Shown: positions 17,526 through 64,000 of the stretch, in pieces | How positions within the stretch are numbered: the stretch's first letter is position 1 | Layout: each line of letters starts with the position of its first letter | Source of the DNA: Raja brachyura | Taxonomy: Eukaryota | Direction of reading: 5' to 3' | Assembly: GCA_963514005.1 (NCBI GenBank) | Contig: OY740805.1 | Location: forward strand, 42,222,001 to 42,286,000 | DNA length: 64,000 bases | The notes under the pieces: generated by a model | Database searches by the model: none | Told to the model about the DNA's origin: nothing | What the model saw: the letters and a program-made list of their open reading frames with translations, nothing else | Translations under genes and position numbers: made by a program

Positions 17526-17850
17526 GACCCTTCTTCAGACTGAGAGTCAGAGGAGACTGAAACGAGAGATAAAGAAGGGTGAGGTGTGAAAACGGGAGAT
17601 GAAATGGGATGCAGATCAAGGAAATGTAGAATAGATCATTGTTAGCCAGGAGAATGTGACAACGAAACATACAGAGATAAGATTTAATCTGGGGGACAGT
17701 CAGACTGGTCGGAGAACTCGGAAGAGGGAGGGAAGGAGAGAGAGAGGGAAAGCAAGGTTACTTGAAGTTACAGAAGTCAATATTGTAAGCTGCCCAAATG
17801 AAAGATGAGATGCTGTTCCTCCAACTTACGTTGAGCTTCACTCTGAAGAT
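17525..17850 (-). mobile_element. Penelope-like element 3' remnant
   Basis: Reverse strand encodes QSEAQRKLEEQHLIFHLGSL (GIY-YIG C-terminus) followed by pLTR-type sequence CTGAAGAAGGGTCTC. Confidence 0.75.
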
Positions 17851-18299
17851 GGAGGACGCCCAGAACAGAAACATCAATGTGGGAACGGGAGGGGGAGTTA
17901 AAGTTTTTAGCAACGGGAGATCAGGTATGTCTAGGCGGACTGACTTGCGTTTTCGGTTTCCTCCCATATTCCAAAGACGTACAGGTTTGTAGGTTAATTG
18001 GCTTGGTAAATGTAAAAAGTGTCGCTAGTGGGTATCGGATAGTGTTAAGGTGCGGAGATCGCTGGTCTTTGGGAGTGGGAGAAAACTGGAGCTCCGGAGA
18101 AAGCCCACGCGGTCACCGGGAGAACGTACAAATTCCATACAATCAGCATCAGGATTGACTCGGGTTTCTAGCGCTACAAGGCAGCAACTCTACCGCTGCT
18201 CCACAGCGCCGTCCTAGAATCTCCTTGTGCCGGCACTAATCCCATCTGCCTGTGTCTGTAACACGTTGAACCAACTTGCCCATGCCGGCTAATATGACC

Positions 18300-19435: not shown

Positions 19436-19557
19436 TGTGACAAACTACGGAGCTGTGATCAAATCTAACGTTTGTGTGGATGCTAAATTGTGTACAAAAT
19501 ATAAACGTTTTATAAACTTTCTGAATGCAATAACGCGGCACCATATCTTGCTCTCAC

Positions 19558-19677
19558 CTTTAATCATTTTATCTTCTTTTCTGTGCAACATTATATCGAA
19601 AGCAGCAGCCATAACCACGAGGGCCGCAAACGCCCAGAAAACCAGCAGCCAAGGGTTGGTTTTAGGAAATAACTCAT
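19558..19677 (-). pseudogene. BTN-like transmembrane exon (DELFPKTNPWLLVFWAFAALVVMAAAFDIMLHRKEDKMIK)
   Basis: 120 bp, tgtAG acceptor, GTGAGA donor, phase 1-1, hydrophobic stretch then basic residues; not in ORF track. Confidence 0.8.
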
Positions 19678-20493
19678 CTACATTGGTGAATGAAAATAGA
19701 TCAGTAACAGCAACAGGAAGGAACTACAGATGCTGGTTTATACCGGATAGACACAAAATACTGGAGTGACTCAGCAGGTCAGGCAGCATCTCCGCAGGGA
19801 AGAAAGTCAGATTCAGATTCCACTACTACAGCACCGCAGACCCGGGGCTCTAATTCGACACATAGAATCCTCGTTTATACGCAGTAAACTCAATGTCGAT
19901 CCAATGGAGATTACAGTGGTGAATTAAATCATTGTCTATGAGCGTTTATATTGATGTCGTGCCTTGAAAAAGAAGTCATGCACTTTCCAAGGTGGTCAAT
20001 GTATCAGGTAATGTTAATGTGTTTGGTGTATGGCCAGTCAGATATCAGTGGCAGCGCAAAATGGAGAAGTGGCCAAAGACCTGGACACAGATGTGATGGA
20101 CGAGGGTGGAGAGTAGACAGTGGACAGGTGTGGCCGCAGATAAATTGTGTAGGAAACAACTGCAGATGCTGGTTTATTCACAAAATGCTGGAGTATCTCA
20201 GCGGGTCAAGCAGCATCACTGAAGAAGGCTTCCGACCTGAAACGTCACCCATCCTTTTTCACCAGAGATGCTCCCTGACCCACAGCATAATTCCAGCACT
20301 TTGTGTCTATTTGTGGTATCCGATAGTTCTTCTGCCGGGAAACCCTCTGGGCTCAAACAAGAAAAGCTGCGCCTTGGGAATGAGACCAGAGCAGCAGAGT
20401 GCTGGTGGGTCCACTCGAACGTTAATGCCTTTTGCGCAGTGAAAGTTAGTTCAGAACTCGCTTTTGTAAAATGTTTCCCAGGTTCCCACGTAC

Positions 20494-20771
20494 CTGATAT
20501 CTGGAGATGGGCCTCTCGTGTTTTCCCCGTTGATCTACTTCATATGAAACAGGAATACCTGTTCACAGAATCACTTGTGATATCGATGTGACTGTGGACA
20601 GTGATCAGCCCGCTGGAGTCCTCAGTGTGGCAGACCGCGCTGTTACATCTTGTCCACTCCCATCCAGCCACCGTATCTCCGGCTTGGGAAACCATCCATT
20701 CAACTTACACACCACACGCACTCCTTGCGTGGTGCTTTCCTCCAAGCGGATCCAGGGCCGGAAGCCAAATC
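20494..20771 (-). pseudogene. BTN-like IgC exon with frameshift and premature stop
   Basis: GVRVVCKLNGWFPKPEIRW...NRYSCFI*SRSTGKTREAHLQIS; 278 bp (not 3n); AG/GT borders. Confidence 0.88.
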
Positions 20772-20778
20772 CTGCAAT

Positions 20779-22014
20779 GAATGAATGGATGAATATGTTT
20801 ATTGTCCAAGTATTCACATACAAGGAATTTGCCTTGGTGCTCCGCCCACAAATGACAACATGCCATACAGTGACAGTTAGGAATGACACATAAAACATTA
20901 AACATTAATAATAACACATTATCATAAACATGTGCATTAAATAAAATACCAGAGCAAAAGGAGGCTACAGATTTTTGGTTATTGAGTAGAGCTACTACTC
21001 ATGGAAAAAAGCTGTTTTTATGTCTGGCTGTTGCAGCTTTGGCAGTCTGCAGTCGCCTTCCAGAGGGAAGTGAATCAATGAGTTTGTTGCCAGGGTGAGA
21101 GGCATCAGAGATGATCTTACCCGCTCGTTTCCTGGCCCTTGCAGTGTACTGTTCATCAATGGAGGGAAGGTTGCAGCCAACTACCTTCTCAGCTGATCGG
21201 ACGATTCGCTGCGGCCTCCGGATGTCGGGCTTAGTGGCTGAGCCAAACCAGAACATGGTGGAGAAGGTGAGGACCATCATAGAATTGGACCATCATTGCC
21301 TGTTGCAGATTGTGCTTCCACAGCTGCCGCATGAAGTACATCCTCTTTTGGGCCTTTTTGGACTGTCGAGTCGATGATGCCCCCCCCATTTAGGGCCCTT
21401 GGAGATGATGGTTCCCAGGAATTTAAAGGACTCCACAGATGTGACTGTGGTGTTGTTGATGGTGACTGGGGTGAGGGGAGGCGTGGCTCTCCTAAAGTCT
21501 ACAATTAATTCCACTGTCTTAAGAGCATTGAGCTCCAAGTTGTTACGAAGGCACCAGGGCACCAGCTGTGCCACTTCCTGTCTGTAGGCAGATTCCTCCC
21601 CATCCTGGATCAGTCCAATCAGGGTTGTGTCGTCCGCAAACTTGAGAAGCTTGACAGAGGAGTCTGTGGAGGTGCAGTCATTGGTGTAGACAGAATCGAG
21701 GAGAGACGATAGTACGCAGCCTTGAGGTGCTCCTATGCTGAGGGTCTGCGGGGCTGAAATGTGCTTTTCCAGCCTCACATGCTGCTTCCTGTCTGTCAGG
21801 AAGCTGGTGATCCACTGACGGAGGGGTTCAGGCACAGTCAATTTGGAGAATTTGTAGCTCTGACACAATGGTGTTGAATGCAGAGCTAAAATCCACTAAC
21901 AAAATCCTCGCAAATGTCCTCTGGCAGTCTAGGTGCTGGAGGATGAAATGCAGGACTAGGTTGACTGCGTCATCCACAGATCTCATCCACAGATCTATTG
22001 GCCCGATGTTCAAA
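20779..22014 (-). mobile_element. Rex1/Babar LINE fragment inserted at the IgC acceptor
   Basis: QGCVLS, KFADDTT, LPSGRR; (ATTC)n tail; TSD CTGCAAT 20772-20778 / 22015-22021. Confidence 0.9.
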
Positions 22015-22635
22015 CTGCAATCGGGATGTAATCGGTAAACACAATAGTTACACATGTATCTCGGCATGGAAAGGGCTTTCCGTGTGCTGGGTCAGTGAGC
22101 AGCAGATGACGCCGGGGCTTGAAGAGCCACAGAAAGAGCAGCGGTGGGAACTCCAACGATCATTGGTTGGGTGACCGGGTACCGCTGTGTTACCACCCCA
22201 TCGCCTCGTTGTCACCTTCCCCTTCAGCTAACAATGATCTGTTCTACATTTTACTTGAACCGCGTCCCCTTTGGGTCTTCTTTTTCACAGCTTACCCTTC
22301 CATATCTCTAGACTCCCTCTCCCATGTTTCTCAGTCTTCAGATGGGTCTCGACCCGAAACGTCACCCATTCCTGCTCTTCACACATGCTGCCTGTCCCGC
22401 GGAGTTACTCCTGCATTTTATGTCTACATTCGGTGTAATTCGCAGTTCCTTCCTATACACAACCTCGCCGCTGCCATTCCATTCCAGGCCGTGTCACTCC
22501 CAGCCTGTGCCGAGGCAGCGGTCAACATTGTCAGTAACCCTTGACCTTCCCAGTAAAATCCCAGTCTGGGGGGCAGCTTACTGACATTCCCGGTGTAAAC
22601 CCTGGTGTGAACTCTATGCCTCCATAGGGACTCAC

Positions 22636-22983
22636 CTTCAACCTGCAGCCGCAGCGCCGCCTGGTGACTGGACGTGGGGGTGCTGATGGAACACGTGTAG
22701 ATTCCAGCATCTGATACTTTGACCATCTTCAGTTTAAACGATGCGTTTCCACGGGGAAACTCTTCCCGAATAAGCTCCGTCCTCCCTCGGTAAGCCCCGT
22801 CCTGCACCTCAGCTCGGTCCTGGCCGCCAGTGTATAAATGTACCGGTGACCTCGGGCTCGTTGTAAACCATCGGACCTCCAGAGCGTCCAGTGATGTATC
22901 CGGTACCTTCTGACATTCTAACACGGCATCTTCACCCACCATGGCCACCACCGGATAGTCCGGCACAATCACAGAGAACTCCT
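22636..22983 (-). pseudogene. BTN-like IgV exon, open reading frame (part of a gene disabled elsewhere)
   Basis: 348 bp, phase 1-1; FSVIVPDYPVVAMVGEDAVLEC, EVRWF, VHLY, YRGRTEL, GNAS, VKVSDAGIYTC. Confidence 0.92.
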
Positions 22984-23125: not shown

Positions 23126-24671
23126 AATCCACCCCCAACGTATCTCCGGCTTGGAAACCATCCATCGGACTTACACACCACACGTACTCCTTGCGTGGTG
23201 CTTTCCTCCAAGCGGATCCAGGGACAGAGTCAGGGCCAGGTTTATATTCTTCAAAGAATAAACCTAGCAATTATAGACCTGTTAGTTTGGCATCAGTGGT
23301 GGGCAAATTAATGGAAAGGATACTTAGAGATAATATATATAAGCATCTGGATAAACAGGGTCTGATCAAGAACAGTCAACATGGATTTGTGCCTGGAAGG
23401 TCAAGTTTGACAAACCTTCTTGAATTTTTTGAAGAGGTTACTAGGAAAATTGATGAGGGTAAAGCATGGGATGTTGTCTATATGGATTTCAGTAAGGCCT
23501 TTGACAAGGTTCCCCATGGAAGGTTGGTTAAGAAGGTTCAATCTTTGGGTGTTAATGGCGGAGTAGCAAGATGGATTCAACAGTGGCTGAATGGAAGATG
23601 CCAGAGAGTAATGGTGGATGGCTGTTTGTCAGGTTGGAAGCCGGTGACCAGTGGGGTGCCTCAGGGATCTGTGTTGGGACCACTGTTGTTTGTCATGTGC
23701 ATCAATGATCTAGATGATGGGGTGGAAAATTGGATAAGTAAGTATGCAGATGATACTAAGATAGGTGGTGCTGTGGATAATGAAGTAGATTTTCAAAGTC
23801 TACTAAGAGATTTGGGCCATTTGGAAGAGTGGACTGAAAGATGGCAGATGGAGCTTAATGCTGATAAGTGTGAGGTGCTACATCTTGGCATGACAAATCA
23901 AAATAGGACATACATGGTAAATGGTAGGGAATTGAGGAATGCTGTGGAACAGAGGGATCTAGGAATAACTGTGCATAGTTCCCTGAAGGTGGAATCGCAT
24001 GTAGATAGGGTGGTAAAGAAAGCTTTTCGTGTGCTGGCCTTTATAAATCAGAGCATTGAATATAGGAGTAGGGAAGTGATGTTAAAATTGTACAAGGCAT
24101 TGGTAAGACCAATTCTGGAGTATGGTGTACAATTTTGGTCACCTAATTATAGGAAGGATGTCAACAAAATAGAGAAAGTACAGAGGAGATTTACTATATT
24201 GTTGCCTGGGTTCAAGCAACTAAGTTACAGAGAAAGGTTGAACAAGTTAGGTCTTTATTCTTTGGAGCGCAGAAATTTAAGGGGGGGACTTGATTGAAGT
24301 CTTTAAAATGATGAAAGGGATAGACAGAGTTGACGTGGATAAGCTTTTCCCATTGAGGGTAGGGAAGATTCAAACAAGAGGGCATGACATGAGAATTAAG
24401 GGACAAAAGTTTAGGGGCAACATCAGGAGGAACTTCTTTACTCAGAGTGTGGTGGCTGTGTGGAATGATCTTCCTGCAGAAGTGGTGGAGGCAGGATCGA
24501 TTTTAACATTTAAAAGTAAAGTGGATAGGTATATGGATGGGAAGGGAATGGAGGGGTATGGTCTGAGTGCAGGTAGATGGGACTAGGGGAAAATAAATGG
24601 TCGGCACGGACTGGAAGGGCAGAGAAGGCCTGTTTCCGTGCTGTAATTGTTATATGGTTATAGTCCAAATC
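23126..24671 (-). pseudogene. Second IgC exon copy, 5' part only (24662-24671 + 23126-23231), split by CR1
   Basis: High similarity to 20665-20771; upstream intron 24672-24776 matches 22015-22118. Confidence 0.85.
23232..24661 (+). mobile_element. Young 5'-truncated CR1 (long RT ORF)
   Basis: NYRPVSL, QGSVLGPLLF, YADD; AGTC on both flanks (23228-23231, 24662-24665). Confidence 0.92.
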
Positions 24672-29627: not shown

Positions 29628-29813
29628 CTTCAACCTGCAGCCGCAATGCCGCCTGGTGACTGGACGTGGGGGTGCTGATGGAACACGTGTACATTCCAGC
29701 ATCTGATACTTTGACCCTCTTCAGTTTAAGCGATGCGTTTCCACGGGGAAACTCTTCCCAAATAAGCTCCGTCCTCCCTCGGTTAGCCCCGTCCTGCACC
29801 TCAGGTCGGTCCT
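29628..29813 (-). pseudogene. Second IgV exon copy, 5' half deleted
   Basis: RGRTELIWEEFPRGNASLKLKRVKVSDAGMYTC...LQVE; near-identical to 22636-22822; donor retained. Confidence 0.9.
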
Positions 29814-30070
29814 GAGGTGCAGGACCGACCTGAAAAGAAAAGCAAATGTGATTCTTTTGTTATAGTTTAGAACTCTTCCAAATATCATTGGTCTGGATAC
29901 ATTGCTCATATGAAAGATTCAATGCATAATGAAAGCTGCTGCATATATTTTCAACCGGAAACATCACCTATTCCTCTGCCTGACCCAGTGAGCTGTTCCA
30001 GCATTTTGTGTCCGCCTTCGGTATAAACTAGCCTCTGCAGTTCAATAGCCACATATTCTCGTGTACTTTC

Positions 30071-31460: not shown

Positions 31461-31589
31461 GCTGTTGTTTGATGCGTCTGTTTTGTTTCACGTTCCAATA
31501 AAACACAGCAACGTGGGCGGCATTGAGAAGACAAATGGTGAGGACCAGCGGCAGGGCCCAGTCAGGAACTCCAGCAAGGAAGATATCAT
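31461..31589 (-). pseudogene. Orphan BTN-like TM exon of a second type (DDIFLAGVPDWALPLVLTICLLNAAHVAVFYWNVKQNRRIKQQ)
   Basis: 129 bp, GTAAGA donor in phase 1; acceptor reads GG instead of AG. Confidence 0.65.
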
Positions 31590-34652: not shown

Positions 34653-37600
34653 TGTGGGGCGCTACTCTGTGAACGACTCGTGGCGCGCTGCTCCCGTATG
34701 TTTCCATGTTTTATGAGTTGTTTAGTGTTTTTCTAAGAGTCATTAAGTCCGGTATTTAACGATAGCAAGTATGATTACCACTGTCAAGTATTTAGCGAGT
34801 TTGTGTGTTCTGACCACCTTTTTGCAGCCAGTATTTGCGATATGTATTACACCGGCAAATCCCATGACACGCCATGGAGGGAGGCTCACCTACTCACGGG
34901 ACACTTTGCAGGATCTGCGGCCTGCTTCCGGCCTACAAGCGACACCTTCTACCCTGAATGGGATTCCTCAGCTACAGAGGAATCATTGCATCAAGCACAT
35001 TCATAGGAAAAGGGGAGCCAGAGGAGGAATACGGAACAGAATGAGGAGACGAGGTAGGAGGCTGCCACTACCTGCAATAACTCTCTCCAATGTGCGGTCA
35101 CTACGCAACAAAATAACTGAACTTTCCGCACTCATTAAATTTGACTTAGACTACCGTCAAACAAGTCTCTTTTGTTTCACGGAGACATGGTTGTCAGAAG
35201 AAATAACCAATGTCGATATTGATGAATTTAAGATCATCCGTTTTGATAGAGGCACTAGGATGACGCGGAAGTCGATTGGGGGCGGGCTCTGCATAGCTGT
35301 CAACACAAAGTGGGCTGTCAACTTCACTATCAGAGAGACTGAATGCAGCAAACACCACAAAACCATGACGGTGTCGTTCAGGCCTCACTACCTTCCCCGT
35401 GAATTCACACAGATCACAGTTATCCTAGCGTATGTCCCTGGACCTGATAACGCATTTGCTGCGGAGCGCATTGCTGACTGTTTCAACAGAGCTGTCAATC
35501 AGAGCAGCGATCAGCCTGTCTTCCTGCTTGGGGATTTTAACAGATGCGATGTCACCACATTGCTTCCAAACTTGGAGCAGTATGTTACCACACCTACCAG
35601 ACTTGACAGAATGCTGGATATGTGTTTCGGTAACATACCGGGAGCCTATGTTTCAAAGTCCCGCCCACCACTGGGACGCTCCGACCACAATGTCATTCTG
35701 CTGCTTCCAAAATACAGACAAAAATTAAAAACAGAAGATATACAAACAAAAACTATTCAAGTCTGGAACGATGACTCTGTCGATGCATTAAGGGGCTGCA
35801 TGGAGATCACTGACTGGGAAATATTGTTCCAAAGCTGTGAGGGAGACCTAAATCTGCTGACAGACTCTATCTCCTCCTATTTGTCATTCTGTGTGGACGC
35901 TGTTATACCAACAAAACAGGTCAAGCTGTACCACAATAACAAGCCTTGGGTTACCAAGGACCTGAAGCAGTGTCTTAAAAACAAAAAAGTGGCATTCCAA
36001 CAGGGAGACAAACACAGAGTAAAACAGTATAATAGTGAGTTGAGAAGGAAGACCAGGCAGGCCAAACGCCACTACAAAAACAAAGTGGAGGAAAAATTCA
36101 CCACTGGCAATGCAAGGGAGCCATGGCAGGGACTTAGCACCATGATGGGCAGAGCCCAGAAACCGGCCCTGATCCAATGCTCTGACCCCGCCACATTTGC
36201 TGAGCAACTCAACATCTATTACAGCAGGTTTGATAGACCACACCCCCAGAATGACTGGACCCTCACCAGCAGTCCATCAATCACAGTGGATAAAAGGAAG
36301 GTTACATCTATACTGGGCCGCATCAACCCTCACAAAGCTTCTGGCCCAGACAGGCTCAGGGGCAAGGTGCTGAGGGAATGCTCAGTTCAGCTGGGTGATG
36401 TCATCACTCAGCTATTCCAACATCTCCTTGACTCCAGCTGTGTCCCACGGATGTGGAAGGAGTCTACACTTATACCGTTGCCGAAGAAATCTAACGCCAG
36501 GGAGACGAAGGACTTCAGACCGGTAGCACTCACATCCATTCTTTCCAAGTGTATGGAGAGGGTGGTAAGTGACCACCTCACTGCTATGGTGGTGGACAGG
36601 CTTGACCCACTCCAGTTCGCCTATAAGGCAAGGCGTGGTGTGGAGGATGCCTGTTTGACTCTCCTGGACACAGTTAGCAGACAGCTGGACTCCCCACACC
36701 CCCACACATGGATTTTATTTATGGATTTTTCTTCCGCTTTTAACACAGTCAACACAGTCACCCTCTGCAACCGCCTTCTGGATCTACAAGTCAACCCATC
36801 ACTTATCCTGTGGATAAAAGACTTCCTGCAGGACCGGCCACAGCATGTGGTGGTAAATGGTTTTAAATCCAAGAACATGATTTTAAACACTGGTGTCCCC
36901 CAGGGTTGTGTTTTATCACCGATCTTATTTTCCATCTACATGAACAATGTAACAAACAATAACAGTGACATTCCCCTTTTTAAGTATGCAGACGATATGG
37001 CCCTGGTGGCCCACATCAAGGATCACACTTCTCTGGCTGCCTACTATCAGCAGGTCAACATCTTGATGCTGTGGATCAAAGAGAGCTCTCTGGAGCTTAA
37101 CATCTCCAAGACCAAGGAGCTGTGTTGTGGGGGAAGGCGAACATCTTCCCCTCAACCTCTCTTTGAACCTCTGAGGCTGAATGGGCAGACAGTCGAGCAG
37201 GTAGAGGCCTTTAGATACCTGGGCACAGAGATTGACACCCGCCTGTCCTTCTCCCAGCACACAGACTCGGTGTACAAGAAGGCACAGCAACGCCTGTTCC
37301 TGCTGAGGAAACTCAGGAGCTTTGATGTCAGACAGGACATTTTAACAGCTGTATATAAATCACTTATAGAATCTGTACTCACCTTTAACATCACATCCTG
37401 GTTCACCCTTACCTCTGTCAAAGACAAATCAAAGCTTTCCCGGATCATCAATCAAGCAAGCCAAATAACTGGCAAAACTCAAATTCAATTGTCAGTACTT
37501 CACACCCAGGCAGTTAAAAGGAAAGCCAACCTCATTACACAGGATCCCACCCACCCCCTGCACAAGTCCTTCCAACTTCTGCCATCAGGCCGCCGACATA

Positions 37601-37926
37601 AAGTCCCCCTATCCAAGAAAAACATCCACAAAAACTCATTCATACCCATTGCCATAAATAGTTTAAATAATACATGATCAATGGACAAATTAACCCTGAC
37701 GCACTGTCACTTTACACGTATCCACAACTTTCAACTTTTATCTTGTCTATTTTTACAGTTTCTAATCTTTATATTTGTTTTTAAGACCTATACACACTGA
37801 GTGTGCCCGCAGAAGGCTGTGTTGTATGATGACTGTTGTATATTGTCTTGTTGTATGTTGAGCCACGTCAAAGAAGATTTTCTGTTACGACAGACAATAA
37901 AGTTTTCTGAATCTGAATCTGAATCT
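34653..37926 (+). mobile_element. Full-length Rex1/Babar LINE
   Basis: Short 5' UTR, single ORF, AATAAA and (TGAATC)3 tail; no TSD seen. Confidence 0.93.
34771..37677 (+). CDS. Rex1/Babar APE endonuclease-reverse transcriptase, 968 aa, intact
   Basis: SNVRSL, FTETWL, GDFN, SDHN; FRPVALT, QGCVLSP, YADD; LLPSGRR. Confidence 0.93.
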   Translation: MITTVKYLASLCVLTTFLQPVFAICITPANPMTRHGGRLTYSRDTLQDLRPASGLQATPSTLNGIPQLQRNHCIKHIHRKRGARGGIRNRMRRRGRRLPLPAITLSNVRSLRNKITELSALIKFDLDYRQTSLFCFTETWLSEEITNVDIDEFKIIRFDRGTRMTRKSIGGGLCIAVNTKWAVNFTIRETECSKHHKTMTVSFRPHYLPREFTQITVILAYVPGPDNAFAAERIADCFNRAVNQSSDQPVFLLGDFNRCDVTTLLPNLEQYVTTPTRLDRMLDMCFGNIPGAYVSKSRPPLGRSDHNVILLLPKYRQKLKTEDIQTKTIQVWNDDSVDALRGCMEITDWEILFQSCEGDLNLLTDSISSYLSFCVDAVIPTKQVKLYHNNKPWVTKDLKQCLKNKKVAFQQGDKHRVKQYNSELRRKTRQAKRHYKNKVEEKFTTGNAREPWQGLSTMMGRAQKPALIQCSDPATFAEQLNIYYSRFDRPHPQNDWTLTSSPSITVDKRKVTSILGRINPHKASGPDRLRGKVLRECSVQLGDVITQLFQHLLDSSCVPRMWKESTLIPLPKKSNARETKDFRPVALTSILSKCMERVVSDHLTAMVVDRLDPLQFAYKARRGVEDACLTLLDTVSRQLDSPHPHTWILFMDFSSAFNTVNTVTLCNRLLDLQVNPSLILWIKDFLQDRPQHVVVNGFKSKNMILNTGVPQGCVLSPILFSIYMNNVTNNNSDIPLFKYADDMALVAHIKDHTSLAAYYQQVNILMLWIKESSLELNISKTKELCCGGRRTSSPQPLFEPLRLNGQTVEQVEAFRYLGTEIDTRLSFSQHTDSVYKKAQQRLFLLRKLRSFDVRQDILTAVYKSLIESVLTFNITSWFTLTSVKDKSKLSRIINQASQITGKTQIQLSVLHTQAVKRKANLITQDPTHPLHKSFQLLPSGRRHKVPLSKKNIHKNSFIPIAINSLNNT

Positions 37927-51186: not shown

Positions 51187-51719
51187 TTACTCACCCGGAA
51201 CAGAACCGGAGCAGATTGTCATCCAGTCGTACGGAAGGCAAGGCCAGAAGAGAGGATAAAGTTTCTCCGTGAATTTATTCCCAGTGAAGGTGTGGAGATG
51301 GGACTTGGTGTCCGCGTCGTAAAATGCAACTGTCCCGGACTCGTAACTGAGATAAACTCCCACCCTCCCGGGGATGGGACGGGCGGGGAGAGGGGATGGA
51401 GGGGAGGTGACTGCATCAAACACGTCACCCCGCCGCTCGATGATCCAGACTCCAGTCTTCGGCCTCAGTGTGACCCGTCTCTTCCTCTCCACAGACTCTG
51501 CGGCGACTCCCAGTCTCCAGCCCCGACTCCCCGCCACCTCTACCTCCCAGTAATGTCTCCCCGATGTGAATCCCTCCGATCCCAACACACACCACCAGCC
51601 TGTAAACCTCTTCCCGGTGTCAGGGAGATTCCTCTCGGTCAGGGTCACTCTCACCCTCTTCCGATCCTCAGACACCTCGAGCCGCGCATGCGCTGTTTCC
51701 AGATCCAGGGTGACGGAGA
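51187..51719 (-). CDS. Butyrophilin-like gene terminal exon: complete B30.2 (PRY/SPRY) domain
   Basis: VTLDLETAHARLEVSEDRK, CVLGSEGFTSGRHYWEVEV, VGVYLSYESGTVAFY, LYPLF; ctgcttctccccccAG acceptor, phase 1. Confidence 0.92.
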
Positions 51720-52552
51720 CTGGGGGGAGAAGCAGAGAATCACAGAGTCCCCGGGGGTCGGGGGGAGACTCGGGCACAGGCGGGCGGACAACTGACACCT
51801 TGCCCGGGGTTTCACCACAACAACATCGGGTGGACAACAGACATCTGTCACGGAGTTTCCAAATTAGGGTGGAAGTGGAGGGGAACCGGGTGCACGGTGA
51901 GAAATAAAAACAAACTGCTGGAGGAAGTCCACGGGTCAGGCGACACATGTGTAAGGAAATGACAGAACACGTCTAGGGTCTGGACGCTTCTTCATTCTCA
52001 TGCTTCCCTCTGCTCCCTCCGTAGAAAGAGACAGGGGAAGGGGTGCAGCAAAATACTTCACATATGTGTGTGTTTGTATCCACATAGAGACCCACCCACC
52101 CACATTCACACACACACGCACATATATATTCACACACACACACACACACATATATATACACATATACTCATTCACACACACACACTCATTCACACACACA
52201 TACACCTACACTCATTCACGAACACATATACACACACACACTCATTCACACACACAGTCACAAACAGTCACACACACACTCATTCACACACACTCAGACA
52301 CACACACACGCGCAGACACACAAACACTTCCACTCATTCACACACCTGCACACACTAATTCACACATATACACTCACACACACACACACACGCATTCACA
52401 CACATATGCACACACACACTGTGATGAATATTCACTTTTCAAGTCAAAGGCTTGGTCACTTCTCTGGCCCAAATGCTTTTTGCTAAACTCAGATTTTTAG
52501 CACAGCAACTGTGCATGGTTCAAGATGTTTGTTGTTCAGTAAGTTAGGAATC

Positions 52553-53348
52553 TAAGTAAGTAAGTAAGTTTATTGGCCAAGTATTCACATACAAGGAATT
52601 TGCCTTGGTGCTCTGCCAACAAATAACAACATGACAGTGACAGTTATGAATCTCAGAAAACACTAAACATTAATAATAATAAAATATTAATGATAAAACA
52701 CCATTGATCAAGCATGTGAACCAACAAAAATACCAGATCGAAGGGAGGCTACGGATTTTTGGTTGTTGAGTAGAGCAACTACTCGTGGATAAAAACTGTC
52801 CGTAGTCGCCTTCCAGAGGGAAATGATTCAAAGAGTTTGTGGCCAGGGTGAGAGGGGTCAGAGATGATCTTGCCCGCTCGCTTCCTGGCCCTTGCAGTGT
52901 ACAGTTCATCAATGGAGGGAAGGTTACAGCCAAGAACCTTCTCTGCTGATTGGATGATTCACTGCAGCCTCCACATGTCGTACTTGGTGGCTGAGCCAAA
53001 CCAGACCATGATGGAGAAGATGAGGACAGACTACGATGGCCATCTAGAATTGGACCATCATTGCCTGTGGCAGATTGTGCTTCCTCAGCTGCCGTAGGAA
53101 GTAATCATCTGTTGTGCCTTTTTGACTGTGGAGTCGATGGCAGCTCCCCACTTAAGGTCCTTGGAGATGATGGTTCCCAAGAACTTAAAATACTCCACAG
53201 ATGTGACTGTGGTGTTGTTGATGGTGAGTGGGTGAGGGGAGGGGGAGCTCTCCTAAAGTCTACAATCAATTCCACTGTCTTAAGAGCATTGAGCTCTTGG
53301 TTGTTCCGATAGTACCAGGAAGCCAGCTGTGACACTTCTTGTCTGTGG
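52553..53348 (-). mobile_element. Rex1/Babar 3' fragment
   Basis: ELNALKTVELIVDFR; (TTAC)n tail; similar to 20779-21590. Confidence 0.85.
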
Positions 53349-54224
53349 GTAGGAAGGGTCTGTAGGCTAATCATAGAAACATAGACAATAGGCGCAGGAG
53401 TCTGCCATTCGGCCCTTCGAGCCAGCACGGCCATTCAATATGATCATGGCTGATCACCCAGAATCAGTACCCTGTTCCAGCGTTCAACTCATATCCCTTG
53501 ATTCCGTTAGCCGTAAGAGCTAAATCTAACTCTTTCATGAAAACACACAGTGAATTGGCCTTCACTACCTTCTGGGCCTGAGAATTCCACGGATTCACAA
53601 CTCCCTGGATGAAAACGTTTTTTCTCCTCTCGATCCTAAATGGCCTACCCCTTATTCTTAAACTGTGTAACTCCAGGTTCTGGACCCGTCCACCCCCAGT
53701 TTGAATTCCATTTGGAATATTTTGGAGGACCAGGAAACCAAGAACCAAGAACATCGGGAATATTTTTCCTGCATCCAGCCTGTCCAGTCCTTTAAGAATT
53801 TAAAATGTATCTATATGATCCCCTTTCATCCTTCTAAACTCAAGAGTATACAAGCCCAGCCGCTCCATTCTCTCAGCATATGACAGTCCCGCAATCCCGG
53901 GAATTAACTTGGTGAACCGAAGCTGCACTCCCTCAATAGCAAGAACGTCCTTCCTCAAAGTAGGCAACCAAAACTGCACACAATACTCCTGGTGTGGTGT
54001 CACCAGGGCCCCGTACAACTACAGTAGGACCTCTTAACGCCAGAGCAGCCACGGTGGCGCAGCGGTAAAGTTGCTGTCTTACATCGCTTGATACGCCGGA
54101 GACCCGGGTTCGACCCTGACTACTGGTTCTGTCTATATGCAGTTTGTGCGTTCTCCCCGTGACCGCGTGGGTTTTCTCCGAGATCTTCGGTGCCCTCCCA
54201 CACTCCAAAGGCGTATGTAGTTTC

Positions 54225-57168
54225 ATTCTCAATTAAAGGGGAGCACCCAGGAGGTACAGTGAACTCTGCGTAGGATCAATCCACGCAAGGCTGCAGGCCC
54301 GGATGGAGTCCAGGGTAGGGTACTAAAGGACTGTACTGTACAGCTGGCGGAGGTATTTACGAGGATCTTCAACCTGTCTCTATCTCTGGCAATGGTTCCC
54401 AAGTGCCTGCAGACAGCTACCATAGTGCCGGTGCCGAAAAAGTCTAAAGTCACCAACCTGAATGACTACCGCCCGGTTGCCCTGACTCCAATACCAATGA
54501 AGTGCTTTGAAAGGCTGGTCCTCTCCCACATCAAATCCAGCACCCCTGCATCATTGGACTCTCGTCAATTTGCATACAGGGCAAATAGATCCACAGAGGA
54601 TGCCATCTCTGTGGCTCTCCACACTGTCCTGACCCACCTGGAAAGAGAGGGCATCAACGTGAGGATGCTCTTCGTTAACTATAGCTGTGCCTTCAATACG
54701 GTCATCCCCACCAAGCTCACCACCAAACTCCACCAGCTAGGCCTCAGCTCACTGATATGCGATTGGATCCTGAATTTTCTGACGGAACGACCGCAGGCAG
54801 TGAGACTGGGGCTGCACCTGTCCTCCAGTATCACCCTGAGCACCGGCAAACCACAGGGCTGTGTACTGAGCCCCATGCTCTAGTCCCTCTAGTCCATGGA
54901 ACAACTTGTCGCTAAACAGCTCCAAGACCAAGGAGCTGATTATCGACTTCAGGAGGTCACAGAATGGGGAATACGCCCCAATCTCCATCTACGGAGACAG
55001 TGTGGAGAGAGTGCCCAGGTTCAAGTTTCTGGGCACTCAACCTCAGAGGACCACACATTGGTTCACCAACACTGCTGCGCTGGTCAAAAACTCACAGCAA
55101 CGACTGTTCTTCCTAAGAACATTGAAACGGGCTGGTCTGCCCCAACAGCTGCTGACGACCTTCTACCGCTGCACCACAGAGAGCATACTAACGAATGGCA
55201 TCTTTGTGTGGTATCTCAGCTGCACGGAGGCGGAGAGGAGAGCTCTTCAGCGCGTTGTCCACAGAGCGCAACATATTATTGGGACAGCGCTACCAGCCTT
55301 GGAGGGCATCTACCACACACGGTGCCTCAGGAAGGCCGTCAGCATACATAAAGACTCGTCTCACCCTTGTAATGGACTGTTCGAACTACACCTTTCCGGC
55401 AGACGTTACAAGGCCTTCTACGCCCGCACTACCAGACTCAGGAACAGCTTCATTCCCAGAGCTATAGCGGCTCTGAACCGGCCCTGCTGACTAACCCCCC
55501 CCCCCCTCCCCGCACCCATATAACCATATAACAATTAGAGCACGGAAACAGGCCATCTCGGCCCTTCAAGTCCGTGCCGAACAACTTTTTTTTCCCTTAG
55601 TCCCACCTGCCTGCACATAGCATAACCCTCCATACCCTTCTCATCCATATGCCTATCCAATTTATTTTTAAATGATACCAACGAACCTGCCGCCACCACT
55701 TCCACTGGAAGCTCATTCCACACCGCTACCACTCTCTGAGTAAAGAAGTTCCCCTTCATGTTACCCCTAAACCTCTGTCCCTTAATTCTAAAGTCATGTC
55801 CTCTTGTTTGAATCTTCCCTATTCTCAAAGGGAAAAGCTTGTCCACATTAACTCTGTCTATCCCTCTCATCATTTTAAAGACCTCTATCAAGTCCCCCCT
55901 TAACCTTCTGCGCTCCAGAGAATAAAGACCTAACTTATTCAACCTATCTCTTTAACTTAGCTGTTGAAACCCAGGCAACATTCTAGTAAATCTCCTCTGT
56001 ACCCTCTCTATTTTGCTGACATCCTTCCTATAATTGGGCGACCAAAATTGTACACCATACTCCAGATTTGGTCTCACCAACGCCTTGTACAATTTTAACA
56101 TTACATCCCAGCTTCTATACTCAATGCTCTGATTTATAAAGGTTAGCATACCAAAAGCTTTCTTTACCACCCTATCTATATGAGATTCCACCTTCAAGGA
56201 ACTATGCACGGTTATTCCCAGATCCCTCTGTTCAACTGTATTCTTGAATTCCCTACCGTTTACCATGTACGTCCTATTTTGATTTGTCCTGCCAAGGTGT
56301 AGCACCTCACATTTATCAGCATTAAACTCCATCTGCCATCTTTCAGCCCATTTTTCCAACTGGCCTAAATCACTGTGTAGACTTTGGAAATCCTCTTCAT
56401 TATCCACAACACCTCATATCTTGGTATCATCTGCATACTTACTAATCCAATTTACCACCCCTTCATCCAGATCATTGATGTACATGACAAACAACAAAGG
56501 ACCCATCACTGATCCCTGAGGCATCCCACTAGTCACCTGCCTCCAACCCGACAAACAGCCATCCACCATTACCCTCTGGCTTCTCCCATTCAGCCACTGT
56601 TGAATCCATCTTGCTATTCCTGCATTTATACCCAACAGTTGAGCCTTCTTAACCAACCTTCCATGAGGAACCTTGTCAAAGGCCTTACTGAAGTCCATAT
56701 AGACAACATCCACTGCTTTACCCTCGTCAATTTCCCTAGTAACCTCTTCAAAACATTCAAGAAGATTAGTCAAACATGACCTTCCAGGCATAAATCCATG
56801 TTGACTGTTCCTAATTAGACCCTCTTTATCCAGATACTTATATATATTATCTCTAAGTATCTTTTCCATTAATTTGCCCACCACTGAAGTCAAACTAACC
56901 GGTCTATAATTGCTAGGTTTACTTTTAGAACCCTTTTTAAACAATGGAACAACATGCGCAGTACGCCAATCCTCGGGGACTATTCCCGTTTCTAATGAAC
57001 CCCATGGACTGTCTCCTCCGGCCTCGCACCTTAGTCTGTGTTGATGTTACTGGCCAAATGTTCGTTTTTACAAACCTTGTTCTCGAGGTTTGCAAACCAA
57101 AATCTCGAAGTTGCAAACCAAATCTCGATGCACTTATGTGTAACGACAATAAAATATATTATTCTTAT
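54225..57168 (+). mobile_element. Rex1/Babar fragment with 3' UTR split by CR1
   Basis: [21 protein letters not shown]; AATAAA and TTA tail at ~57150-57168. Confidence 0.85.
55520..57000 (-). mobile_element. Young 5'-truncated CR1
   Basis: Three near-contiguous RT/C-terminal ORFs; CCCAT on both flanks. Confidence 0.9.
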
Positions 57169-58705
57169 TAATTGACTTGGTAAATGTGTAAAGTGTCCCT
57201 AGTGTGTGTAGGATAGTATTAATGTGCGGACTCAGTGGGCCAAAGGGCCTGTTTTAACTCTAAACTAAAGTACATTTTTAAAAATCAAATGTTCTCGGCA
57301 TGAAGGCCAACACTGTGCCTGCTGTGCCTGCACGCTTACTTTCAGTGGCTGATGTACAAGGACACCCAGATCTCATTGCACCTCTACTTTTCCTAATCTG
57401 ACAATATTTAGATAATAATCTGTCTTTCAGCCCATCCCACTAGCCCGTCTGTCTTCAGAAAAGGACCAGTTAATTCCTACTCTGTGCTTCCTGTCTGGCA
57501 ACCAGTTCTCTATCCATTCAATACCCTTCCACCAATACCATGTGCTCTAATTTTGCACACTAATCTCTTGTGTGGAAGTCCAGATATATCACATCCACTG
57601 GCTCTCCTTCATCCATTCTACTTGTCACATCCTCAAAAAATTCCAGAAGATTAGTCAAGCATGATTTCCCCTTCATAAATCCATGCTGACTTTGACCAAT
57701 CTCGTCACTGCTTTCCAAATGTGTTGCTATAACATCTTTAACAATCGACTCAAGCACCTTCCCCACTACCGATGTAAGGCTAACTGGTCTACAATTCCCC
57801 GTTTTCCCCGAGAGAGGGGGGGAGAGAGAGAAAAGTGTGGTTATATTAGCTACCCTCCAGTCCACAGGAACTGACCCAGAATCGAGAGAACATTGGAAAA
57901 TGATCACCAATGCATTCACGATTTCGATGGCCACCTCCTTGAGTACTCTGGGATGCAGACCATCAGGGATTTATCTGCCTTCAGTCCCAACAATTTACCC
58001 AACACCATTTCCTGACTAATGTGGATTCCCTTCGGTTCCTCCATCCCACTAGATCCTCGGTCCCCTAGTATTTCGGGGAGATTGTTTGTGTCTTCCTAAG
58101 TGAAGACAGAACCAAAGTACTTGTTTAACTGTTGTCCTCCTCTGTTGAATTCTAAATGTCTCCCAGTCCTCTGGTTTGCTGCTTCCTCTGGCCAATATTT
58201 ATGCCTCATTCTTGGATTTAACACTATCCTTAATTTCTCCCATTAGCCACGGTTGAGCCGCCTTCACCAATTTATTTTTTTTGTCAGACAGGGATGAACA
58301 GTGTGTGCAGTTCATCCATGCGATCCTTAAATCTTTGCCATTTCATCTCCACCGTCAACCCTTTTAGTATCATTTGCCTGTCTATCCCAGACAATTCCCG
58401 TCTCATAGCATCAAAGTCTCTTTCTTGAAGGTCAGGACCCTGGTCTCTGAATTAACCGTGTCGCTCTCCATCCTAATGCAGAATTCCACCATATTATGGT
58501 CACTGTTGCCCAAGGGGCTTTGTACAACAAGATGGCTAACTAATCCTTCCTCATTACACAATTCCCAGTCTAGGATGACCTGCCCTCTAGTTGTTTCCTC
58601 TACATGTTGGCTTAGAAAACCATCCCGTATACACTCCGTGAAATCCTCCTCCTCAGTGTTGTTACCCATTTAGTCGGCCCAAAATATATGTAGATTAAAG
58701 TCACC

Positions 58706-58782
58706 CATGATCAGTGATATACTGCTTGTTCGCCTGCTAATGAATGAGTAGCAGAGGAACAAGCAGTATATCACTGATCATG
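58706..58782. other. 77-nt hairpin (26-bp perfect stem)
   Basis: CATGATCAGTGATATACTGCTTGTTC ... GAACAAGCAGTATATCACTGATCATG. Confidence 0.9.
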
Positions 58783-59359
58783 TTATCCTCAATTGTAAGA
58801 ATTGCACTTGTCTTTTGGAAACCCTTTGTAAACTATGACCTCCATTAAAATTACTCCTCAAAATTAATCGCGCTTCATTAAAAAATATAACTGTGTTTAT
58901 TCTGCGTCGTCAGCTGGAAGTAACCGCTCCTTGGCTGGGAGGGAGGACACACGGCTGTAAATAGTGATTATTGACAACTAACCCCGTGCAGCTGTGACCA
59001 GAGTGGTGAAGTAAGTAAGTGTTTGAAATACAGGTCGAATCCCCTTATAGTGAGAGTACTTGTAGATACTTAGAGCAGGTAAGACAAAGTCTTGATTTAA
59101 GTTTAGGCTCCCGGACGAGTAATCTCAATGTCATCACCACACACACACACACTCACGCGCACACATACACACGCACACATATGCAACACACACACACACA
59201 TGCAAATGCACGCATATTCACCACACACGCACGCCCACGCACTCACGCACATGCACTCATTCCCACACACACACACGCCACACTCACACGATCGCACGCA
59301 CGCACATACATACGCACCAAACTGACACACACGCACACTCACGTAAATTTAAATCTTAC

Positions 59360-59386
59360 CTTCGTGGCCACGTATCCTTTTCCACT
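59360..59386 (-). CDS. 27-bp BTN juxta-B30.2 micro-exon (EWKRIRGHE)
   Basis: ttgttactgttttcAG / GTAAGA, phase 1-1; EWK motif typical of the BTN pre-B30.2 exon. Confidence 0.8.
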
Positions 59387-59917
59387 CTGAAAACAGTAAC
59401 AACAAACAAGACTGAATAAAATTCTCTGGGATCTAATCTGTGATTAATTTCATAGCAATGAGTATTAAATGTGTAAAGAAGCTCCTGGTGGAGCTGCTGC
59501 AGCATCAATACACGCTGTCCATGGGTGATGATGATGCTGCNNNNNNNNNNNNNNNNNNNNNNNNNNNNNNNNNNNNNNNNNNNNNNNNNNNNNNNNNNNN
59601 NNNNNNNNNNNNNNNNNNNNNNNNNNNNNNNNNNNNNNNNNNNNNNNNNNNNNNNNNNNNNNNNNNNNNNNNNNNNNNNNNNNNNNNNNNNNNNNNNNNN
59701 NNNNNNNNNNNNNNNNNNNNNNNNNNNNNNNNNNNNNNNNNNNNNNNNNNNNNNNNNNNNNNNNNNNNNNNNNNNNNNNNNNNNNNNNNNNNNNNNNNNN
59801 NNNNNNNNNNNNNNNNNNNNNNNNNNNNNNNNNNNNNNNNNNNNNNNNNNNNNNNNNNNNNNNNNNNNNNNNNNNNNNNNNNNNNNNNNNNNNNNNNNNN
59901 NNNNNNNNNNNTCGATT

Positions 59918-61836
59918 CATTCTCTCTCTCTCTCCCATTCTCTTCCTCCTCTCTCTCTTTCTCTCGCTCTCCCTCTCTCTCTCCCTCTCTCCCTCCTTCC
60001 CTCTCCCTCTCTCTCCCCCTCTCTCTCCCCCTCTCTCTGTCCCCTCCCTGTCTCTCTCCCCTCGCTCTATTCCTTCCTGTCTCTCTCCCTCTCTCCCCTC
60101 TCTCTCTCCCCCTCTCACCCCCCTCTCTCGCTCAGTCTCTCCCTCTCTCTCTCTCCCTTCGTTTCCCACCCTCTCTCTCTCCCTTTCTCTCTCTCTGCCT
60201 CCCCCTCACCCTCTATCCTTCCACTCCCACCCCTCTCTCCCTCTCTCCTCCTCTCTCTCTCCCCCACCCCATCTCTCTCTCTCCCCTCTTTCTCCCTCTC
60301 CCTCCTCTCTCTCTCTCCCTTCATCGCTCTCTCTCCCCCACTCTCTCTCACTCCCCCCTCTCCCTACCCCTCCCCACTCTCTCTCTCCCCTCTCGCCCCC
60401 TCCCCCTCGCCCTCCCCTCTCTCTATCGCCCCCCTTCCTCTATCTCCCCTCTCCCTCACACCCTCTCCTTCTCTATCTCTCTCTCTCTATCTCCCCCTCT
60501 CTATCCCTTCCCCCTCTCTCCCTCCCCCCCCCTCTCGCTCTCTCCCCTCTCTGTTTCTCTCTCTCTCTCTCACCTCCCCTCTCTCTCTCCCTCTCTCCTG
60601 TCTCGCTCTCTCACCCTCGGACCACGGGGGGAACAGTGGGGAACATTGGGAAGAGAATGACTTTGGTGCCTTCCCTCACAGTGGGAAATGTTGATCCTGC
60701 TTTGTGGGGATGTTTTATGTTGAATTCTATCTACTCCATGTTGTGTTCTTTATTTTTACTGTATGGTGATTTCATTTCACTGTGCCAATTGGCACATGTG
60801 ACAAATAAATGCATCTTATCTTATCATCTTATCTCTCTCCCTCCCACTCTCCCCCTCCCCTCTCTATCCCTCACTCTCCCTCTCTATCTCCCACTCTCCC
60901 TCGCTCCCTCTCCTCTCCTCCCCTCTCTCTCCCTTNNNNNNNNNNNNNNNNNNNNNNNNNNNNNNNNNNNNNNNNNNNNNNNNNNNNNNNNNNNNNNNNN
61001 NNNNNNNNNNNNNNNNNNNNNNNNNNNNNNNNNNNNNNNNNNNNNNNNNNNNNNNNNNNNNNNNNNNNNNNNNNNNNNNNNNNNNNNNNNNNNNNNAGGA
61101 GTAGACCACTCGGCCCTTTTAGCTAGCACCACCATTCAATGTGATCATGGCTGATCATCCACAATCAGTACCCCGTTCCTGCCTTCTCCCTGTATCCCCT
61201 GACTCCGCTATCTTTAACTCTATCTAACTCTCTCACGAAAACATCTAGCGAATTGGCCTTAACTGCATTCTGAGGCAAAGAACTCCACAGATTCACAGCT
61301 CTCTAGGTGGACTCGTTCCTCCCCCTCTCTCTCCTTCCCCCTCTCCCCCCTCTCAATCCCCCCTCCCCCTCTCCCTCACTCCCCCTCCCCCTCTCCCCTT
61401 CCCACTCTCTCGCCCCTCCCCCTCTCTCAACTCCCCCCTCTCTATCCTCCCCTCTCTCCCTCTCTTTATTGCCCCCCCTCTCCTGCCCTCTCTCTCCCTC
61501 CCTCTCATCCTCCCCTTCTCTATCTCCCCCCCCCTCTCTCCCCCTCTCTATCCTTTCCACTCCCTCCCTCTCCCTCCCCCTCTCTCTCATTCCCCCTCTC
61601 TATCTCTCTCACCTCCCTCTCTCTCTCCCTCTCTCCTCTCTCTCCCTCTCTGCCCTTCCCTGTCCCTCCTTCCCCCCCCCACCCCCTCTACCCCCTCTCC
61701 TCTCTGTCCCTCTCTATCTCCCACTCTCCCTCTCTATCTCCCACTCTCTATCGCTCTCGCCCCTCCACTTTCACCCTCCCCTCTCTCTCTCCCTCTCTCT
61801 CCCTCTCTCCCTCCCTCCATCGCTCTCTCTCTCTCT
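59918..61836. repeat. Polypyrimidine (CT-rich) tracts 59918-60612, 60830-60935, 61315-61836
   Basis: Nearly pure C/T on the + strand, adjacent to assembly gaps. Confidence 0.95.
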
Positions 61837-63076
61837 GGAGTGTGGTCTGTGTGGCACTGGGCTACATCTACAATGCTGGGGAGTGTGGTCTGTGTGATGG
61901 ACTTGGCTCCATCGACAATGGTGGGGAGTGTGGTCTGTGTGATGGACTTGGCTCCATCTACAATGGTGGGGAGTGTGGTCTGTGTGGGACTGGGCTCCAT
62001 CTACAATGGTGGGGAGTGTGGTCTGTGTGGGACTGGGCCACATCTACAATGGTGGGGAGTGTGGTCTGTGTGGGACTGGGCTACATCTACAATGGTGGGG
62101 AGTGTGGTCTGTGTGGGACTGGGTCACATCTACAATGGTGGGGAGTGTGGTCTGTGTGGGACTGGGCTACATCTACAATGGTGGGGAGTGTGGTCTGTGT
62201 GGGACTGGGCTCCATCTACAATGGTGGGGAGTGTGGTCTGTGTGGGACTGGGCTACATCTACAATTGTGGGGAGTGTGGTCTGTGTGGGACTGGGCTCCA
62301 TCTACAATGGTGGGGAGTGTGGTCTGTGTGGGACTGGGCCACATCTACAATGGTGGGGAGTGTGGTCTGTGTGGGACTGGGCTACATCTACAATGGTGGG
62401 GAGTGTGGTCTGTGTGGGACTGGGCTACATCTACAATTGTGGGGAGTGTGGTCTGTGTGGGACTGGGCTCCATCTACAATGGTGGGGAGTGTGGTCTGTG
62501 TGGGACTGGGCCACATCTACAATGGTGGGGAGTGTGGTCTGTGTGGGACTGGGCCACATCTACAGTGGTGGGGAGTGGTCTGTGTGGGACTGGGCCACAT
62601 CTACAATGGTGGGGAGTGTGGTCTGTGTGGGACTGGGCCACATCTACAATGGTGGGGAGTGTGGTCTGTGTGGGACTGGGCCACATCTACAATGGTGGGG
62701 AGTGTGGTCTGTGTGGGACTGGGCCACATCTACAATGGTGGGGAGTGTGGTCTGTGTGGGACTGGGCTACATCTTCAATGGTGGGGAGTGTGGTCTGTGT
62801 GGGACTGGGCTACATCTACAGTGGTGGGGAGTGTGGTCTGTGTGGGACTGGGCTACATCTACAATGGTGGGGAGTGTGGTCTGTGTGGGACTGGGCTACA
62901 TCTACAATGGTGGGCAGTGTGGTCTGTGTGGGACTGGGCTACATCTACAATGGTGGGGAGTGTGGTCTGTGTGGGACTGGGCTCCATCTACAATGGTGGG
63001 GAGTGTGGTCTGTGTGGGACTGGGCTACATCTACAATGGTGGGGAGTGTGGTCTGTGTGGCACTGGGCTACATCTA
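61837..63076. repeat. 43-bp minisatellite (~29 units) derived from Rex1 coding sequence
   Basis: Unit GGGGAGTGTGGTCTGTGTGGGACTGGGCTACATCTACAATGGT; Rex1 remnant adjoining at 63077-63298 (-). Confidence 0.9.
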
Positions 63077-63510
63077 TATCTTTCAGTAATTGCGATCTCG
63101 GCCAGACATGCTGAATGTCCTCAGTCCCCTAAGCAAGTAGAGACATTGGGTGACATATTAGGTGTAGCTTCTCTGTACTTGGTCCACAACAGATCACTGG
63201 GAATATTAACACCGAGATACATGAGGCTCTCACCCACTTGTACTTCGGCACCATTGATGCTGATTGGGGCGTGTACACCATCGGCATTCCTGAAATTAAC
63301 GCACAAACACGCACGTCTTCGGGATGTGGGAGAAAACCGGAGCAACCCGAGGAAACCCGTCACAAGGAGAACATACAAACTCCACACAGACAGCACCCGA
63401 GGTCAGGATCGAACCCGCGTCTCTGGGGCTGTGAGATATCAATTCTCGCAGCAGCGCCACTGTGTGGCCATTCCTTCTCATTTGTGAATATTTCTATACT
63501 AAATTCTTAC

Positions 63511-63543
63511 CAAGTTCTACGATGGATTTGCGCCGTTCCAGCT
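63511..63543 (-). CDS. 33-bp BTN cytoplasmic micro-exon ((E/Q)LERRKSIVEL)
   Basis: ggtttctccttccAG / GTAAGA, phase 1-1, in frame with 59360-59386 and B30.2. Confidence 0.75.
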
Positions 63544-64000
63544 CTGGAAGGAGAAACCAGTGTTACATTTGAACAATGAGCATCAGAGACAATGACTATC
63601 AGAGTCAGAGGTCAATCCAAACAAGGCTGGAAATAAGTGCAGACAATGAGAGAAGTTCCGCGCGGGTCAGGCAGCTGCAGAGAGGAACACAATTCCTGGT
63701 TCACGTTGACAGGGTCTCATCAGGCCTGGACAATGTCAGATGGTGACAGGTGTGAGACAAGTGTAGCGGCAAATAAAGGCGGGAAAACAAATGTTGTGTA
63801 ACATGTGAAGGGCAGGAGAGGGGAATGACGAGGAACGGATCAGGTGAATAAATACACTGTGGGTCCGGGGACGTTTCAATGATTCACCCACGACCAACAG
63901 TTGCTGTAGGAAAATGTGAACACGGTGATCATTGTGTGAAACGGTTGAGGACAATGTTGAATCAGGAAGGCTGCGAGATGCCGGATTCAAAGGCGGGCGG

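Follow-up and report, generated by a model that had tools for sequence, protein, structure and literature searches.

Two micro-exons and a B30.2 exon on the minus strand of a 64,000-nt stretch of the Raja brachyura genome (contig OY740805.1, positions 42,222,001 to 42,286,000; hereafter the window) raise the question of which gene they serve and what its terminal domain might sense. The first part of the answer is, to our minds, hardly in doubt: they encode the cytoplasmic end of a butyrophilin, in a gene whose seven exons are all intact. This gene, referred to as the focal gene, is of a known kind and carries one variant trait, a TRIM-like, fast-changing B30.2 domain. Its parts are listed below in the direction of transcription (TM, transmembrane; e1 and e2, the micro-exons). 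Positions preceded by "contig" count along OY740805.1, all others along the window.

contig 42294457-42294514, minus strand: leader exon, 58 bp from the ATG, beyond the window end
contig 42292888-42293235, minus strand: IgV exon, 348 bp, beyond the window end
contig 42286783-42287064, minus strand: IgC2 exon, 282 bp, beyond the window end
contig 42286460-42286582, minus strand: TM and juxtamembrane exon, 123 bp, beyond the window end
63544-64000, minus strand: 3' part of the TM-e1 intron (916 nt in all), the part inside the window
63543-63511, minus strand: micro-exon e1, 33 bp, ELERRKSIVEL, phase 1-1, acceptor ...TTCCAG, donor GTAAGA
59387-63510, minus strand: e1-e2 intron, 4,124 nt, with a SINE-like (short interspersed element) piece, a 43-bp minisatellite, CT/GA microsatellites and two stretches of N
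59541-59911 (371 nt) and 60936-61096: the two N stretches of that intron
59386-59360, minus strand: micro-exon e2, 27 bp, EWKRIRGHE, phase 1-1, acceptor ...TTTCAG, donor GTAAGA
51719-51187, minus strand: terminal B30.2 (PRY-SPRY) exon, 533 bp to the stop, acceptor ...CCCCAG
50830, 50462, 50394 and 50280, minus strand: candidate polyadenylation hexamers (AATAAA/ATTAAA), motif matches only

Joined in phase 1, e1, e2 and the B30.2 exon read ELERRKSIVEL-EWKRIRGHE-VSVTLD... without a stop. A preliminary description of the window had placed these three exons exactly, with the AG/GTAAGA borders of the micro-exons, whose acceptors are pyrimidine-rich; the "~12 kb" of repeat-filled intron across which it drew the stop-free splice is actually two introns, of 4,124 and 7,640 nt. 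It had also called the gene a butyrophilin and not a TRIM, and had looked to the region past position 64000 for the rest. Leader, IgV, butyrophilin-type IgC and TM exons are indeed found there, directly upstream and in frame, 0.5-8.5 kb past the window end, and each ends in phase 1. The seven exons (leader-IgV-IgC-TM-33-27-B30.2) compose a 1,404-nt open reading frame (ORF) of 467 codons for amino acids (aa) with no internal stop. All seven exons and 12 splice sites are intact, the six introns without exception being GT-AG and phase 1. Pfam recognises, with scores above cut-off, a V-set domain (PF07686, E 1.3e-11), a butyrophilin IgC domain (PF22705, C2-set_3, E 1.2e-22) and, within the single terminal exon, the two parts of B30.2 (PRY, PF13765, E 8e-20; SPRY, PF00622, E 3e-22). 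The sizes of the 348- and 282-bp exons are presumably close to those of human BTN exons. The leader exon (signal peptide) was read from the sequence and is common to the skate models, while a single TM segment is predicted from a hydrophobic stretch of ~22 aa that aligns with the TM of BTN2A1.

Exons this short invite the suspicion of chance. When both strands of the 64-kb window were scanned by fixed rules for open, phase-1 AG/GT exons of 9-63 nt, three candidates emerged: e1, e2 and a micro-exon at 14458-14484 that belongs to a broken butyrophilin described below. Under slightly looser rules, 544 kb yielded 35 matches; all 21 that measure 27 or 33 nt are linker exons of butyrophilins, and the other 14 are not linker exons. 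The micro-exon signal is not a product of chance. Both exons recur in five paralogs. Among 19 annotated proteins (annotation models), the TM|e1 junction is present in 16, the direct e1|e2 junction in 12 and the e2|B30.2 junction in 15; four of the 19 have an additional 9-aa piece between e1 and e2. Furthermore, a contig from sequencing run X7 of a relative, presumed to be of RNA, skips exactly the 916-nt TM-e1 intron with GT..AG ends at a depth of 83.9, a joint present in one of the four relatives' runs examined. For the B30.2 exon no RNA data set turned up, only runs of relatives presumed to be of RNA, a result that has no bearing on expression. With the ORF and the six GT-AG introns intact and this junction in an RNA-type contig, the gene is predicted to be functional, as had been proposed.

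A third, 27-bp micro-exon occurs in two of the five paralogs of the focal gene's own lineage (lineage A; contig 42054205 and 42354603, plus strand) and in 4/19 database models, changing the linker by nine residues. In the focal e1-e2 intron no such exon (GLW.PLV.S) was found outside the N stretches by motif scan or blastn. Because a related exon is seen also in a divergent butyrophilin at 41.43 Mb, the third micro-exon is probably ancestral and was probably lost from the focal gene, unless it lies inside an N stretch; a further micro-exon may be hidden there, notably in the 371-nt one. The minisatellite of the same intron has a 43-bp unit in ~29 copies (~61840-63080) and begins where likeness to the paralogs' intron stops.

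What kind of butyrophilin is this? A search with the IgV exon returned 19 longer proteins, 18 named butyrophilin-like and one uncharacterised, all from skates, rays and sharks; the nearest named proteins are from skates, in keeping with the cartilaginous-fish origin suggested earlier. Identity to lineage-A skate models is 79-87% for ten of 11 and 72% for the last, and the full-length ORF is 79-81% identical to intact models of another skate. NCBI models named "butyrophilin subfamily 1 member A1-like" or "3 member A2-like" from Amblyraja, Leucoraja, Rhinoraja, Pristis, Mobula, Cetorhinus and Heterodontus agree with it in domain order and in the TM|e1|e2|B30.2 junction peptides, with no difference at the level of the gene. 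The e2 peptide EWKRIRGHE is the same in shark and ray models, and since basking shark and sawfish models have the same linker, the claim that the micro-exon layout is ancient holds back to the shark-ray ancestor. Butyrophilins are reported in every jawed vertebrate tested, four cartilaginous fish among them, and in three of these four they lie on the chromosome of the major histocompatibility complex (MHC); the same paper calls them class-specific, with lineage-specific duplications (PMC12841164). The fusion of Ig and SPRY domains has been dated to gnathostomes (PMC11788884). Since cartilaginous-fish butyrophilins and their MHC linkage are published and NCBI models from skates and sharks contain the same junctions, there is nothing out of the ordinary in the gene as such, and the framing of the preliminary description is already known for the group.

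The comparison can be carried to mammals and birds. A full-length skate homolog finds its best PDB matches in BTN2A1, BTN3A1/A3 and BTNL3/8 (E 1e-79 to 1e-62). In the alignment with human BTN2A1, the Trp of e2 falls on the one that precedes B30.2. Human BTN2A1, BTN3A1-A3, BTNL3 and BTNL8 share the order IgV-IgC2-TM-short exons-B30.2; the likeness is one of architecture and best PDB match. In mammals, the short cytoplasmic exons of BTN3A are 21-nt "heptad" exons (PMC6790196), whereas the skate linker is shorter and made of 33- and 27-nt exons. The diversifying skate B30.2 likewise differs from macaque BTN3A, which has little non-synonymous variation (PMC6790196). Chicken BG genes also form an MHC-linked cluster that expands and contracts; it too comprises two lineages, and the cytoplasmic exons are very small. 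They differ in having a single IgV and numerous 21-nt exons and in lacking B30.2 (PMC4046983).

The unusual part of the gene is its B30.2 exon, whose TRIM-like sequence the preliminary description had passed over. Every one of the 150 B30.2 candidates scored in the genome matches it; identity is 73-88% for the 149 others, which are mostly on the same contig; three of the closest loci have RING and B-box exons upstream. Together with the last ~120-140 bp of the intron before it, the focal exon makes up a cassette of ~675 bp. Each of these three TRIM B30.2 exons shares 92% DNA identity with this cassette, in matches that cover 656-677 bp and end at the stop codon. Synonymous divergence (dS) from the three TRIMs is 0.038-0.045, not larger than from the gene's own paralogs (0.035-0.091), and nonsynonymous divergence (dN) from TRIM is 0.09. 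By comparison, the IgV exons of lineage A and of a second butyrophilin lineage, B, are near synonymous saturation (proportion of synonymous differences, pS, 0.74). A B30.2 tree of 37 rows requires nine changes to accommodate lineage A, whose monophyly is rejected (approximately unbiased, AU, test, p=4.1e-6). Skate A domains fall among skate TRIM-type domains, and the A and B domains of the basking shark are sisters (support 100/97). The B30.2 tree thus follows the host lineage, not the butyrophilin lineage. The simplest reading, and a likely one from these sequences, is repeated and recent exon-level exchange between butyrophilins and TRIMs, in one direction or the other.

Shuffling of B30.2 domains is, in general, an old idea. 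It has been described between TRIMs and NLRs in teleosts (PMC2657112), and the C-termini of BTN and TRIM proteins are known to be alike (PMC10445537). The class IV TRIM-B30.2 genes, among them the local cluster, finTRIMs and TRIM5alpha, are the closest comparison: the focal B30.2 is TRIM-type, with the 92% DNA identity to local TRIMs given above, and finTRIMs and TRIM5alpha have fast-changing variable loops likewise (PMC2657112). TRIMs differ in having RING, B-box and coiled-coil exons, the focal gene being instead membrane-anchored with an Ig ectodomain. The text of PMC12841164 contains nothing on an A/B lineage split, a linker charge contrast or B30.2-TRIM exchange, and a literature search that covered few subscription papers found no description of elasmobranch A/B lineages or of BTN-TRIM exchange of B30.2.

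Divergence within lineage A is concentrated in the same domain. Nei-Gojobori counts over the six pairs of four lineage-A genes (the paralog at 41.98 Mb was left out of these counts and of the trees) give a dN/dS of 2.29 for B30.2 (codon bootstrap 1.44-4.1) and of 0.62 for IgV plus IgC (0.39-1.09). The B30.2 differences cluster in loops, with 23 sites showing at least three states among the four genes, and all frames are open.

Lineages A and B make up a cluster. Lineage A is represented at 41.98-42.50 Mb by five genes whose splice sites are intact, and lineage-B genes and relics, whose IgV is ~40% identical to that of A, are interleaved with them. A B gene with all exon types (its splice bounds partly fixed) stands at 42.31-42.32 Mb, head-to-tail upstream of the focal gene; the annotation of another skate fuses one B and one A gene in the same B-A order. 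Lineage B occurs also in sharks and rays. In an IgV tree, A and B (12 rows each) occupy opposite sides of a branch supported at 100/98. Both lineages predate the shark-ray split, because each side holds sharks and batoids. The linker, from TM end to B30.2, is usually 31 residues in both lineages. Its mean net charge is +4.9 in A (n=12, positive in all 12) and -2.8 in B (n=15, negative in 14), one row without a recognisable linker having been dropped. In human BTN3A1/A2/A3, basic versus acidic juxtamembrane motifs disfavour homodimers and favour heteromers through charge-guided coiled-coil pairing (PMC10665462). Opposite linker charge together with this human precedent makes an A/B heteromer a fair inference, one at which the adjacency of A and B genes also hints indirectly.

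On balance, the explanation that we find probable is an intact butyrophilin receptor whose micro-exon helix mediates pairing and whose B30.2, exchanged with TRIMs, senses a fast-changing intracellular ligand; for the mechanism taken by itself the chances appear to us even. The product is predicted to be a type I membrane butyrophilin and a cell-surface immune receptor. It would dimerise through IgC, TM and the basic helix encoded by the micro-exons, probably with a lineage-B partner of opposite charge. The TRIM-like cytosolic B30.2 would bind a variable intracellular ligand, not a phosphoantigen, at its variable loops. The signal would be relayed inside-out to lymphocytes, by analogy with mammals most likely gamma-delta T cells.

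Its main rival, which we hold unlikely though by no means negligible, is that the gene is an ordinary butyrophilin, one that works as a B7-like co-regulator or as a homodimer, with B30.2 bound to a host protein; TRIM-likeness and high dN/dS would then be passive by-products of gene conversion from the hundreds of TRIM exons in the neighbourhood, with no selected function in the butyrophilin. Donors for conversion are abundant, given the 149 other B30.2 matches, and focal-TRIM divergence (dN 0.09, dS 0.04) is similar to that between the focal gene and its paralogs. However, the B30.2 of the nearby lineage-B gene still falls with those of other skate B genes (98/96) and stands at a dS of 0.23 from the focal exon, so conversion is not uniform. 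The concentration of paralog differences at loops, while the frames remain open, also argues against a purely passive process.

That the gene is a copy already silent or dying, in a cluster under birth-and-death turnover, is improbable in our judgement. The window does hold broken neighbours (a B pseudogene, a B30.2 relic and a TM relic), and three paralogs share an identical stretch of 141 bp around e1 that takes in intron sequence, so that the identity of e1 reflects recent copying and is no proof of constraint. Such a copy would nevertheless be hard to square with seven exons and 12 splice sites intact, or with an ORF that is 79-81% identical to another skate's intact models.

We give still less credit to a phosphoantigen sensor like human BTN3A1. 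The architecture is the same, the linker is basic as in BTN3A1, and in the PDB the B30.2 exon matches BTN3A3/BTN3A1 best (E 1e-39). Yet the BTN3A1 pocket residues H351, H378, K393, R412, R418 and R469 correspond to W, R, T, D, P and W, none of the six being identical, and several of the aligned positions vary between paralogs. Among these residues, H351 is described as part of the pocket in PMC7348870; pocket residue numbers were not found in the excerpts of PMC10533412.

Finally, that the exons are part of a TRIM can be dismissed: the B30.2 exon is TRIM-like in sequence, but the exons immediately before e1, in frame with it, encode TM, IgC and IgV, with TM spliced to e1 in RNA-type contigs, no RING, B-box or coiled-coil exon was found in 41.972-42.516 Mb (544 kb) by tblastn with local TRIM exons, and the gene has two micro-exons only. 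Two local TRIM genes have a 23-nt exon and no convincing 27-nt exon before B30.2.

Several points weigh against a TRIM-exchanged sensor in an intact receptor. RNA-type support is for one junction, TM-e1, in a relative, three of the four runs being without such a joint, and the X7 junction could stem from any lineage-A paralog; the e1-e2 and e2-B30.2 junctions rest on relatives' annotation models. The TRIM loci were taken from the top of the similarity list (three with RING/B-box, of 150 scored), so their low dS is a best case. Models from other species that NCBI joined to the wrong B30.2 may mimic exchange, and most fine branches of the B30.2 tree lack resolution. The dN/dS pairs are non-independent and few, their dS is small, and TRIM-derived conversion could have brought in variation on which selection had acted in TRIMs and not in butyrophilins. 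One B linker, that of Pristiophorus, is net basic, and the cluster is rich in broken copies.

What the locus adds is chiefly an evolutionary pattern, with a bearing on what non-mammalian butyrophilins sense and whether they do so as heteromers. As a speculation that we ourselves doubt, A and B may be an obligate butyrophilin pair kept since the shark-ray ancestor, with stable ectodomains and linkers and with B30.2 heads repeatedly replaced from hundreds of antiviral-type TRIM exons and positively selected. If this were true, the first butyrophilins would have detected pathogen proteins inside the cell, much as TRIMs do, with a connection to the cell surface for gamma-delta T cells, and phosphoantigen sensing would be a late mammalian specialisation. 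Because the B30.2 heads track TRIMs and diversify, the evidence points away from small-metabolite sensing. The locus offers concrete constructs, namely an A/B pair conserved in sharks and rays with linkers of opposite charge.

The window and its surroundings contain further members and remnants of the cluster. Two of them were delimited on the minus strand:

14458-22978, minus strand: broken lineage-B butyrophilin; IgV at 22637-22978 open, IgC at ~20500-20778 frameshifted and with a stop, TM at ~19559-19657, 27-bp micro-exon at 14458-14484
45593-45853, minus strand: truncated second B30.2 exon with an in-frame stop, a relic

No B30.2 was found downstream of the broken lineage-B gene within the window. 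The truncated second B30.2 exon is met again at contig 42073592, 42113573 and 42508002 and marks a duplicated unit; in the focal gene, two paralogs and one orphan B30.2 it sits 5-6 kb downstream of the real one. Smaller relics on the minus strand are a partial lineage-B IgV (29629-29814), a lineage-A TM exon with a dead acceptor (31468-31587) and a partial IgC (23152-23229).

In paralog A4 a single e2 is followed by two B30.2 exons, both open and both with AG acceptors (contig 42363489 and 42376497, plus strand), possibly alternative terminal exons that would provide two sensor heads. In paralog A5, e1 and e2 stand 51 kb apart (contig 42444934-42495803, plus strand). Near 40.19, 41.34, 41.42 and 41.66 Mb there are another four butyrophilin-like genes, more divergent and with candidate micro-exons of 21 and 27 nt. 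The one at 41.42 Mb has a stop in IgC; the one at 41.66 Mb has a 27-21-21-27 series of micro-exons, nearer the mammalian heptad layout.

On a wider scale, MHC class I exons are present on the same contig at 18.1-24.1 Mb (7/12 matches), ~18 Mb from the focal gene; a place on the MHC chromosome is usual for butyrophilins, though not a requirement. A very large TRIM-B30.2 cluster extends over 18-42.5 Mb and includes most of the 150 B30.2 candidates scored genome-wide. Within the window, a 976-aa frame of the LINE type (long interspersed element) lies at 34747-37677 on the plus strand, endonuclease- and reverse-transcriptase-like by eye, and many shorter LINE fragments fill the sequence around it.

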